From a virus, in IMG/VR virus record IMGVR_UViG_3300005805_000042: a DNA stretch of 64,000 nt; one strand, 5' to 3'. A model generated the notes under the pieces. It searched no databases. It worked only from the letters and a program-made list of their open reading frames with translations, and was not told where the DNA came from. The translations under genes were made by a program, and so were the position numbers. Positions 43,614 to 43,843 of this stretch are shown one piece after another; position 1 is the first letter of the stretch; every line of letters begins with the position of its first letter.

Positions 43614-43843
43614 TTAACAAAGTATAACCAGGATTCTGTATTTAATCTATCATTAGTCTATTTGCCCCCACCTTACCCGACCAGCTCACCGTCGTGGGTT
43701 GTTTTGGGTTGCATCCTCGGTGGTAATGACGATATAAGGATGTGGACTTATAACTGACCATTATAAGTTTGTTCCCTTATATCTCCCACCTTAAGCTGTG
43801 ATGTCCTGAGTTTCCTCTCCGTAGAGCGACAGAACTTTGTTAA
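43614..43843 (-). ncRNA. rnpB: Minimal RNase P RNA
   Basis: P1 TTAACAAAGT/ACTTTGTTAA; P4 GAGGAAACTCAGGAC with ACAGAATCCTGGTTAT; P2, P3, P5, P6, P7 and P15 pairings found by hand. Confidence 0.88.

Follow-up and report, generated by a model that had tools for sequence, protein, structure and literature searches.

Does the interval 43614-43843 on the minus strand of this 64,000-nucleotide stretch of viral DNA (hereafter, the window) encode an RNase P RNA that has kept its catalytic domain (C-domain) and lost most of its specificity domain (S-domain), and what would a phage do with such an RNA? That the interval is a real feature is virtually certain, and we are highly confident that its product is a genuine RNase P RNA homologue under selection. 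The Rfam model of bacterial class A RNase P RNA (RF00010) matches it globally and its helices covary in relatives, which together exclude a chance origin and bear out the original prediction of an intact catalytic domain with a collapsed S-domain. The carrier, large and of freshwater type, is a phage, as that prediction also held: the window contains genes for the large terminase (16996-18756), the portal (15088-16953) and the major head protein (9172-11007). The portal is closest to those of Microcystis phage Mel-JY01, Flavobacterium 'immuto' phages and a 484-kb uncultured phage, and the nearest IMG/VR record is an 84.6-kb fragment, rated 23% complete, whose copy of the RNA is 99% identical.

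We delimited the gene, from P1 to P1', at 43614-43843 on the minus strand (230 nt; RNA position 1 is window position 43843) using RF00010 and a covariance model of our own, R1. In E-value mode, RF00010 aligned globally to 43610-43843 over model positions 1-367 (E = 1.8 × 10−9 on 0.9 kb and 2 × 10−8 on 10 kb). Infernal comparison with the RNase P models had been proposed as a check on the locus, and this end-to-end match is its outcome, with a score of 35.9 bits that falls far short of the RF00010 gathering score of 100 bits; at gathering thresholds, RNase P is absent from the Rfam matches in the window. Within the RNase P clan, RF00010 is the best Rfam match for the mini RNA. R1 scored 264 bits at 43614-43844 and found a single copy in the window. 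The RF00010 alignment retains GAGGAAA-CUCAGG (CR-I and the 5' strand of P4), GCAA (J5/15), UAGAcuAAUGA (CR-IV) and ACAGAAUCCUGGUUA (CR-V and the 3' strand of P4), and it deletes the columns of P8-P14 and P18, helices that had been described as unrecognisable from the sequence. The mini RNA thus keeps P1, P2, a 3-bp P3, the P4 pseudoknot with its bulged U, P5, the P6 pseudoknot, P7 and P15-P17, together with the GCAA of J5/15, the GGU of L15 and the ACAGAA junction; P1 through P7 all lie where they had been placed on the minus strand. Two features of class A are present, namely P4 with a bulged U flanked by the GAGGAAA of CR-I and the ACAGAA of CR-V, and the P15-P16-P17 module with the P6 pseudoknot and the L15 GGU, which marks type A versus type B. 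Two others are missing, namely P18 with the GNRA loop that docks on P8, and the specificity helices P8-P14, whose CR-II and CR-III form the T-loop binding site. Because the score lies under the RF00010 threshold and these two structural hallmarks are missing, we class the RNA as a new variant of bacterial type A.

Relatives were sought with a pattern that combined both strands of P4, with three base-pairing positions left free, and with R1, which was built from eight sequences and contains only the nested helices of the window RNA, P4 and P6 being left out. Sorted by P4 spacing, the pattern loci in IMG/VR numbered 8 at 150-180 nt, 5 at 181-211, 11 at 119-149, 2 at 88-118, 3 at 212-242 and 2 at 243-273, and all 8 viral matches at the spacing of the window RNA are real members. 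R1 assigned 40-264 bits to 24 of the first 25 loci (L001 and 24 pattern hits), rejected two chance matches and later found L040, of 188 nt. R1 recognises 24 relatives from viral contigs and 54 from metagenome contigs, as well as one in a GenBank record (LR756508.1, 76011-76229). The metagenome scan, made at a spacing of 150-180 nt, returned 70 loci, of which 54 are true members, with GC contents of 33-66% and contigs of up to 727 kb. The 727-kb contig (L058, Ga0308170_10000007) carries a mini RNase P RNA at 6416-6645 (48.5 bits) and belongs either to an exceptionally large phage or to a small cellular genome using the reduced form. In genomes of 185,579 bacterial and archaeal species (one genome each), the pattern at this spacing matched nine times, and R1 and Rfam found none of the nine to be RNase P-like. 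Because about 8 such matches are expected (596 Gb × 2 strands × 31 spacings / 4^21), we attribute the nine to chance. At this size class, the mini RNA occurs in viral and metagenomic DNA and not in cellular reference genomes. The loci L014, L022, L039, L043 and L044 were rejected as members, being chance pattern matches with no RNase P. Searching annotated phages by blastn with the locus and with a 10-kb stretch gave no match, and a 41-nt core query gave chance sites in tape-measure genes and nothing else. Two phages with closely related portals, Microcystis phage Mel-JY01 and Flavobacterium phage immuto, carry no copy of the RNA.

In the viral set (24 distinct sequences), 95.9% of cells were paired versus 73.0% in shuffles, and in the metagenome set (47 distinct sequences) 94.5% were paired versus 69.9%; in each set, none of 500 shuffles reached the observed value. 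When the partners were slid by 1-3 columns, 35-44% (viral) and 33-43% (metagenome) of cells were paired. Changes on both sides were found at 48 of 59 pairs in the viral set and 50 of 59 in the metagenome set, counts that, for the nested helices, lean toward structure, as these helices form part of the model that made the alignment. P4 and P6 are contained in no part of that model. P4, P5 and P6, for which covariation across relatives had been proposed as a further check, covary in both sets. The family to which the window RNA belongs is thus large, and its fold is under purifying selection. From a plain MAFFT alignment of eight sequences, RNAalifold recovered P2, P5, P7, P15, P16 and P17; P1 and the pseudoknots were unrecovered from the same eight sequences. 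MAFFT misaligned the 5' helices of the short-P3 and long-P3 subgroups, and the covariance-model alignment was used instead.

Helix P1 (10 bp) is formed by 43834-43843 (RNA 1-10, TTAACAAAGT) and 43614-43623 (RNA 221-230, ACTTTGTTAA), all coordinates here being on the minus strand, and shows changes on both sides at 9 of 9 counted pairs across homologues. P2 (6 bp) joins TCTGTC at 43828-43833 (RNA 11-16) to GATAGA at 43646-43651 (RNA 193-198), with 6 of 6 pairs compensated and 94-96% of cells paired. P3, at 43817-43826 (RNA 18-27, CUC-UACG-GAG), is a 3-bp stem with a UACG tetraloop in the window RNA and a longer hairpin in other members of the family. P4 pairs RNA 32-34 and 36-40 with 211-218 and lies inside both segments originally quoted for it (43803-43817 and 43624-43639); it leaves U35 (43809) bulged, as U69 is in E. 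coli. The 5' strand of P4, with its bulged U at 43809, and the GAGGAAA of J3/4 make up CR-I (43804-43817), aligned to GAGGAAAGUCCGGG of RF00010, and the ACAGAA of J2/4 and the 3' strand make up CR-V (43626-43639), placed by the RF00010 alignment and by covariation. The invariance of GAGGAAA and ACAGAA is not independent evidence, as these letters were fixed by the search pattern. P4 was paired in 100% (viral) and 99.5% (metagenome) of cells, and two of its pattern-free positions read AU, GC or CG in step. Relative to the bacterial consensus, three P4 pairs have changed on both sides (G-C to C-G, C-G to A-U and G-C to A-U), and the bulged U and two A-U pairs are unmoved; such both-side changes are how a real pseudoknot would evolve.

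P5 (CATC at 43800-43803, RNA 41-44, with GATG at 43712-43715, RNA 129-132) has all 4 bp compensated and 98-100% of cells paired. The P6 pseudoknot joins CAGCT at 43794-43798 (RNA 46-50) to AGCTG at 43682-43686 in the loop of P17 (RNA 158-162); it was paired in 95.1% (viral) and 98.3% (metagenome) of cells, with 5 of 5 pairs compensated in the metagenome set. The P15-P16-P17 module occupies 43666-43708, and our helix assignments within it (P15, RNA 136-138/176-178; P16, 145-148/166-169; P17, 151-153/163-165) were 94-100% paired, with every pair compensated. The GGGTAA that had been read as an L15-like loop proved to be mostly the 3' strand of P16, and the CCA-binding GGU sits instead in AAGGU at 43670-43674, the 3' strand of L15, where it is present in most rows of the homologue alignment. 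J15/2 with CR-IV (..UAGACUAAUGA, 43652-43664) runs through the place from which P18 is absent, and A185, G186, A191 and U192 of CR-IV are near-invariant across rows. In J5/15 (GCAA, 43709-43712, aligned to the GCAA of RF00010), at positions that the search pattern left open, all 55 rows have A135 and 53 of them have A134. This element is the counterpart of A248 of E. coli, which contacts the residue on the 5' side of the cleavage site (PMC10465520).

What is left of the S-domain occupies 43719-43790 (-) and consists of P7 (GGTGG/CCACC, 5 bp, 43786-43790 with 43719-43723, RNA 54-58/121-125) and the sequence that it encloses. The distance between the P7 strands, predicted as about 62 nt, is exactly 62 nt, made up of a GA bulge (2 nt), a two-stem hairpin (53 nt) and the 3' junction GUCAUUA (7 nt). 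These nucleotides had been predicted to fold as one hairpin, and a single hairpin does take the place of P8-P14; it is not continuous, being built of two stacked stems of 9 bp each with a 6 × 6 internal loop between them. A common plan was recognised in about 18 of 22 folded homologues: a 5-bp P7, a 2-nt R-A bulge, a hairpin, a 6-7-nt strand R-U-U-N-U-A, the 3' strand of P7 and then G-A-G before P5. The hairpin ranges from 3 to about 40 bp among the 22 folded homologues, and because its size varies so much its tip cannot be a conserved measuring device. Every one of the 47 stub-bearing rows has A60 (43784) and A120 (43724), and the conserved part of the S-domain remnant is the junction adjoining P7. 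The 3' strand of the stub sits where CR-III (GGUAAAC) is found in a 323-nt phage form, and its RUUNUA may be loosely like a T-loop or a remnant of CR-III. More doubtfully, the junction (A60, A120, GAG and RUUNUA) would be a new minimal module, either a core stabiliser that replaces inter-domain contacts or a novel dock for tRNA.

The family as a whole forms a size series, with phage RNase P RNAs spanning 323 nt down to 188 nt. At the upper end, L041 (11120-11442) and L042 (8757-9079) carry a 323-nt class A RNA that scores 179.6 bits, above the Rfam threshold, and keeps P8-P11, CR-II, CR-III and P18, having lost P13/P14 and part of P12. Smaller forms measure about 274-288 nt (L010, L011 and L013), 219-262 nt (the group of the window RNA), 193-213 nt (L015, L016, L021 and L023) and 188 nt (L040). 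Most simply, phages would have acquired a bacterial type A rnpB and then shed its S-domain and P18 step by step. The window RNA has the features of the phage family, namely the C-domain core, a P7 stub (RA bulge, variable hairpin, RUUNUA junction), the lack of P18 and a position in a tRNA array.

The placement of the RNA in a tRNA gene region was borne out by Rfam and ARAGORN, which found tRNAs around the locus; the window contains 16 Rfam tRNA matches, 12 of them called by ARAGORN, in addition to a freshwater-1 RNA and a group I intron. At nearly all loci, the RNA is co-directional with a tRNA gene array. It ends 5-13 nt before a tRNA at 11 loci (L002, L003, L004, L007, L008, L009, L012, L018, L023, L024 and L040) and starts 2-11 nt after one at 5 loci (L010, L015, L016, L017 and L025, with L017 and L025 being identical copies). 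The window RNA starts 3 nt past the stop codon of a 169-aa ORF (43847-44356, minus strand) and ends 83 nt before an unusual tRNA (43459-43530). That ORF belongs to no known family, is absent from the closest relatives L001 and L006 and is present in L009; it is a recent insertion or deletion beside the RNA gene. A promoter and terminator scan found no sigma-70-like promoter just upstream of the window RNA, and a weak promoter-like site in the 83-nt spacer between the RNA and the unusual tRNA. Elsewhere in the window are an FkbM methyltransferase fused to a GT2 glycosyltransferase (47176-48639, minus strand), two tandem carbamoyltransferases (51763-55063, plus strand) and a Lon-like ATP-dependent protease (phrog_4871; 25090-27090, plus strand), auxiliary genes unrelated to the RNA.

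The original prediction linked the loss of the S-domain, which normally reads the T-loop, to non-canonical T arms in several neighbouring RNAs. This link did not hold up: all 14 window tRNA hits have canonical T arms of the type GGTTCGAAxCC, so that the S-domain loss is unmatched by odd T arms, and the oddities of the window tRNAs are confined to their anticodon or D arms. The tRNA at 43459-43530 (-) has canonical acceptor, D and T arms and a 6-nt anticodon loop, UCUUAA; ARAGORN assigned it no anticodon and read the near-identical copy in L001 as the 4-base 'ctta', and it might decode in an unusual way or act as a suppressor. Two tRNA-model matches with perfect T arms, uncalled by ARAGORN, carry inserts, one of 69 nt in the anticodon arm (41957-42084, minus strand) and one of 30 nt in the D-loop (42297-42394, minus strand), and the freshwater-1 RNA (RF02979; 42130-42191, minus strand; 74.3 bits versus a gathering score of 72) lies between these two genes. 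In three other carriers we observed CUA-anticodon tRNAs (L010 11986-12057, L020 2041-2114 and L021 3246-3318; amber suppressors, labelled Pyl by ARAGORN), a hint of stop-codon recoding in those phages.

A tmRNA had also been placed in the neighbourhood. Neither Rfam nor ARAGORN finds one in the unspliced window sequence. Rfam matches a group I intron at 32019-32235 (72.9 bits), and once 32029-32222 is removed in silico, ARAGORN recognises a tmRNA of 410 nt at 31640-32243 (+), its tag being GNTFEKLQAVGLLTTEAVTVA followed by a stop, which makes the locus a phage gene for a tmRNA whose T-loop is interrupted by a group I intron. As a separate observation, a tmRNA-model match of 40.8 bits, below the gathering score of 47, lies about 400 nt upstream of the RNA in L041 and L042.

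Judging from these sequence comparisons, we consider it probable that this phage-encoded, minimised bacterial type-A RNase P RNA is active, works with host RnpA and matures phage tRNAs; the narrower proposition that the RNA is active in tRNA 5' maturation with host RnpA also appears likely. The RNA would be transcribed with or beside the phage tRNAs, and the enzymes that process tRNAs would release it. For many relatives, the 5' leader of the following tRNA would simply double as the 3' end of the RNA, and RNase P cleavage at that tRNA would generate this end. As a protein partner we looked for RnpA (PF00825), which was found in none of 10 records of carrier phages (two of these with a completeness of 90% or more) and in 10 of 14 bacteria used as a control; the window is part of a phage genome, and an RnpA or another cofactor may be encoded elsewhere in that genome. 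Because the carriers encode no RnpA, the RNA would bind that of the host, the most likely partner. The product of ORF196 (44353-44943), a conserved ORF upstream of the RNA, which has no Pfam or PHROG family match, was rejected as a partner, the gene being syntenic in the close clade only and absent from five distant carriers. With host RnpA, the RNA would cut the 5' leaders off phage pre-tRNAs and probably off the phage tmRNA too, recognition through the acceptor stem, 3' end and leader replacing the T-loop/elbow contact. What the phage would gain is additional capacity for tRNA maturation, or capacity that does not depend on the host, at a time when it produces dozens of tRNAs and host RNA synthesis has been shut off.

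Experiments on E. coli RNase P RNA bear on this proposal in both directions. The C-domain alone cleaves substrates, at reduced efficiency, needs a P6-type contact and can dispense with P18 once the S-domain is gone (PMC5839562). In what it retains and what it lacks, the phage RNA agrees with these results and with archaeal type T, which fits a functional minimal enzyme. Deletion of the S-domain, however, lowers cleavage of a model substrate by the E. coli RNA alone about 500-fold (PMC5839562), which makes efficiency in vivo doubtful. Two properties of the window also weaken the case for an active ribozyme. The RNA keeps the CCA-binding GGU, although CCA is encoded in just 1 of the 14 window tRNA genes (tRNA-Met, 43224-43297), and it lies 83 nt from the next tRNA and 3 nt past an ORF stop, with no sigma-70-like promoter found just upstream.

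Might the RNA act by binding alone? In the bacterial holoenzyme, the protein contacts P2-P3, J2/4, CR-IV and CR-V. The same regions are conserved in the phage RNAs, whose carriers lack an RnpA of their own, and without the S-domain the RNA would handle normal substrates less well, all of which would suit an RNase P-like core that sequesters host RnpA or another RNase P-binding factor, cleaves nothing itself and shuts down or redirects host tRNA processing. We nevertheless regard this as unlikely. A pure protein sponge would need none of P15-P17, P6, the L15 GGU and the A's of J5/15, yet all are maintained, through compensatory change or near-invariance, across genomes of 33-66% GC; these elements bind the substrate, at the cleavage site and 3' end, and not the protein, which favours catalysis. 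Blocking RNase P would, moreover, hurt the phage's own tRNA arrays.

Alternatively, having lost the domain that reads the tRNA elbow, the RNA could be an active ribozyme that mainly cleaves something other than ordinary tRNAs, for instance tRNA-like or hairpin-CCA sites in polycistronic phage RNAs, the tmRNA with its intron, the tRNA-like RNAs with inserts or host RNAs, and it might use a phage protein. Model hairpin substrates are indeed cleaved by the C-domain alone (PMC5839562), the window offers RNAs with 69-nt and 30-nt inserts, a 6-nt anticodon loop, the freshwater-1 RNA and the split tmRNA, and the conserved junction module, with its invariant A60 and A120 and its GAG, lacks an assigned role. 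We think this improbable, as ordinary tRNA genes are the constant neighbours across the family, the odd RNAs are confined to this lineage and no protein gene accompanies the RNA outside the close clade. That the RNA is a functionless, decaying remnant of a captured bacterial rnpB, as the large deletions relative to bacterial RNAs, the score far under the Rfam gathering threshold, the replaced 5' end of L009 and the lack of a clear P1 in L018 and L019 might suggest, is already disfavoured and to our minds scarcely credible, given that 48-50 of 59 pairs are compensated and 94-96% paired across very divergent phages, with invariant core motifs and consistent placement in tRNA arrays.

Beyond the preferred reading, that of a minimised RNase P RNA maturing phage tRNAs, we advance a bolder proposal tentatively: large phages may carry a working RNase P ribozyme, a natural bacterial-type catalytic domain acting in vivo without the domain that reads the T-loop, by which the phage would take over tRNA maturation with hijacked host RnpA or with no protein, the 3' end of the RNA being made by RNase P cleavage at the downstream tRNA, possibly by the RNA itself. 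The doubtful role of the P7 junction as a minimal module belongs to this same proposal. A full-text literature search, with subscription journals outside its scope, found no paper on a phage-encoded RNase P RNA, and the literature that it found describes RNase P RNA solely in cells and organelles. A conserved viral family would add RNase P to the translation-related functions brought by large phages. It would also provide, by the dozen, natural 'deletion mutants' of a classic ribozyme, from 188 to 323 nt, in a series that shows which parts evolution can dispense with (P18 and P8-P14) and which it cannot (P4, P6 and P15-17). How much RNase P RNA is needed in vivo becomes directly testable in this way, and very small natural ribozymes are on offer for structural and engineering work.

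E. coli M1 RNA (rnpB), at 377 nt, has the same C-domain as the 230-nt phage RNA and as RF00010, with P1-P5, a P4 with a bulged U, P6 formed with the loop of P17, P15-P17, GGU, GCAA and CR-I, CR-IV and CR-V. The phage RNA differs in that it lacks P18, P8-P14, CR-II and CR-III, has a P3 of 3 bp and resides in a phage genome, where no rnpA gene was found beside it. The 323-nt form of L041 and L042 shares the core and also lies inside a phage tRNA array, and the window RNA is much further reduced. The closest functional analogue is archaeal type T, known from Pyrobaculum and other Thermoproteaceae, in which the C-domain is intact, the S-domain is degenerate, P6 is kept and P18 is absent (PMC3579882, PMC5839562), and these are the features that the phage RNA shares with it. 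Type T descends from archaeal type A, works with archaeal proteins and has a 3-bp P2, a shortened P15 and a 2-nt P5/P15 linker (PMC3579882), whereas the phage RNA has a 6-bp P2, a bacterial-like sequence and a viral carrier. With a P2 of 6 bp and bacterial class A as its best match in the clan, the phage RNA is not type T, and the resemblance is one of convergent reduction and not of membership. The engineered E. coli C-domain ribozyme (Eco CP RPR) and other mini-M1 constructs retain and lack exactly the elements that the phage RNA retains and lacks (PMC5839562); in contrast to Eco CP RPR, a laboratory construct, the phage RNA is natural and selected, and it has in addition a conserved P7/hairpin junction module.
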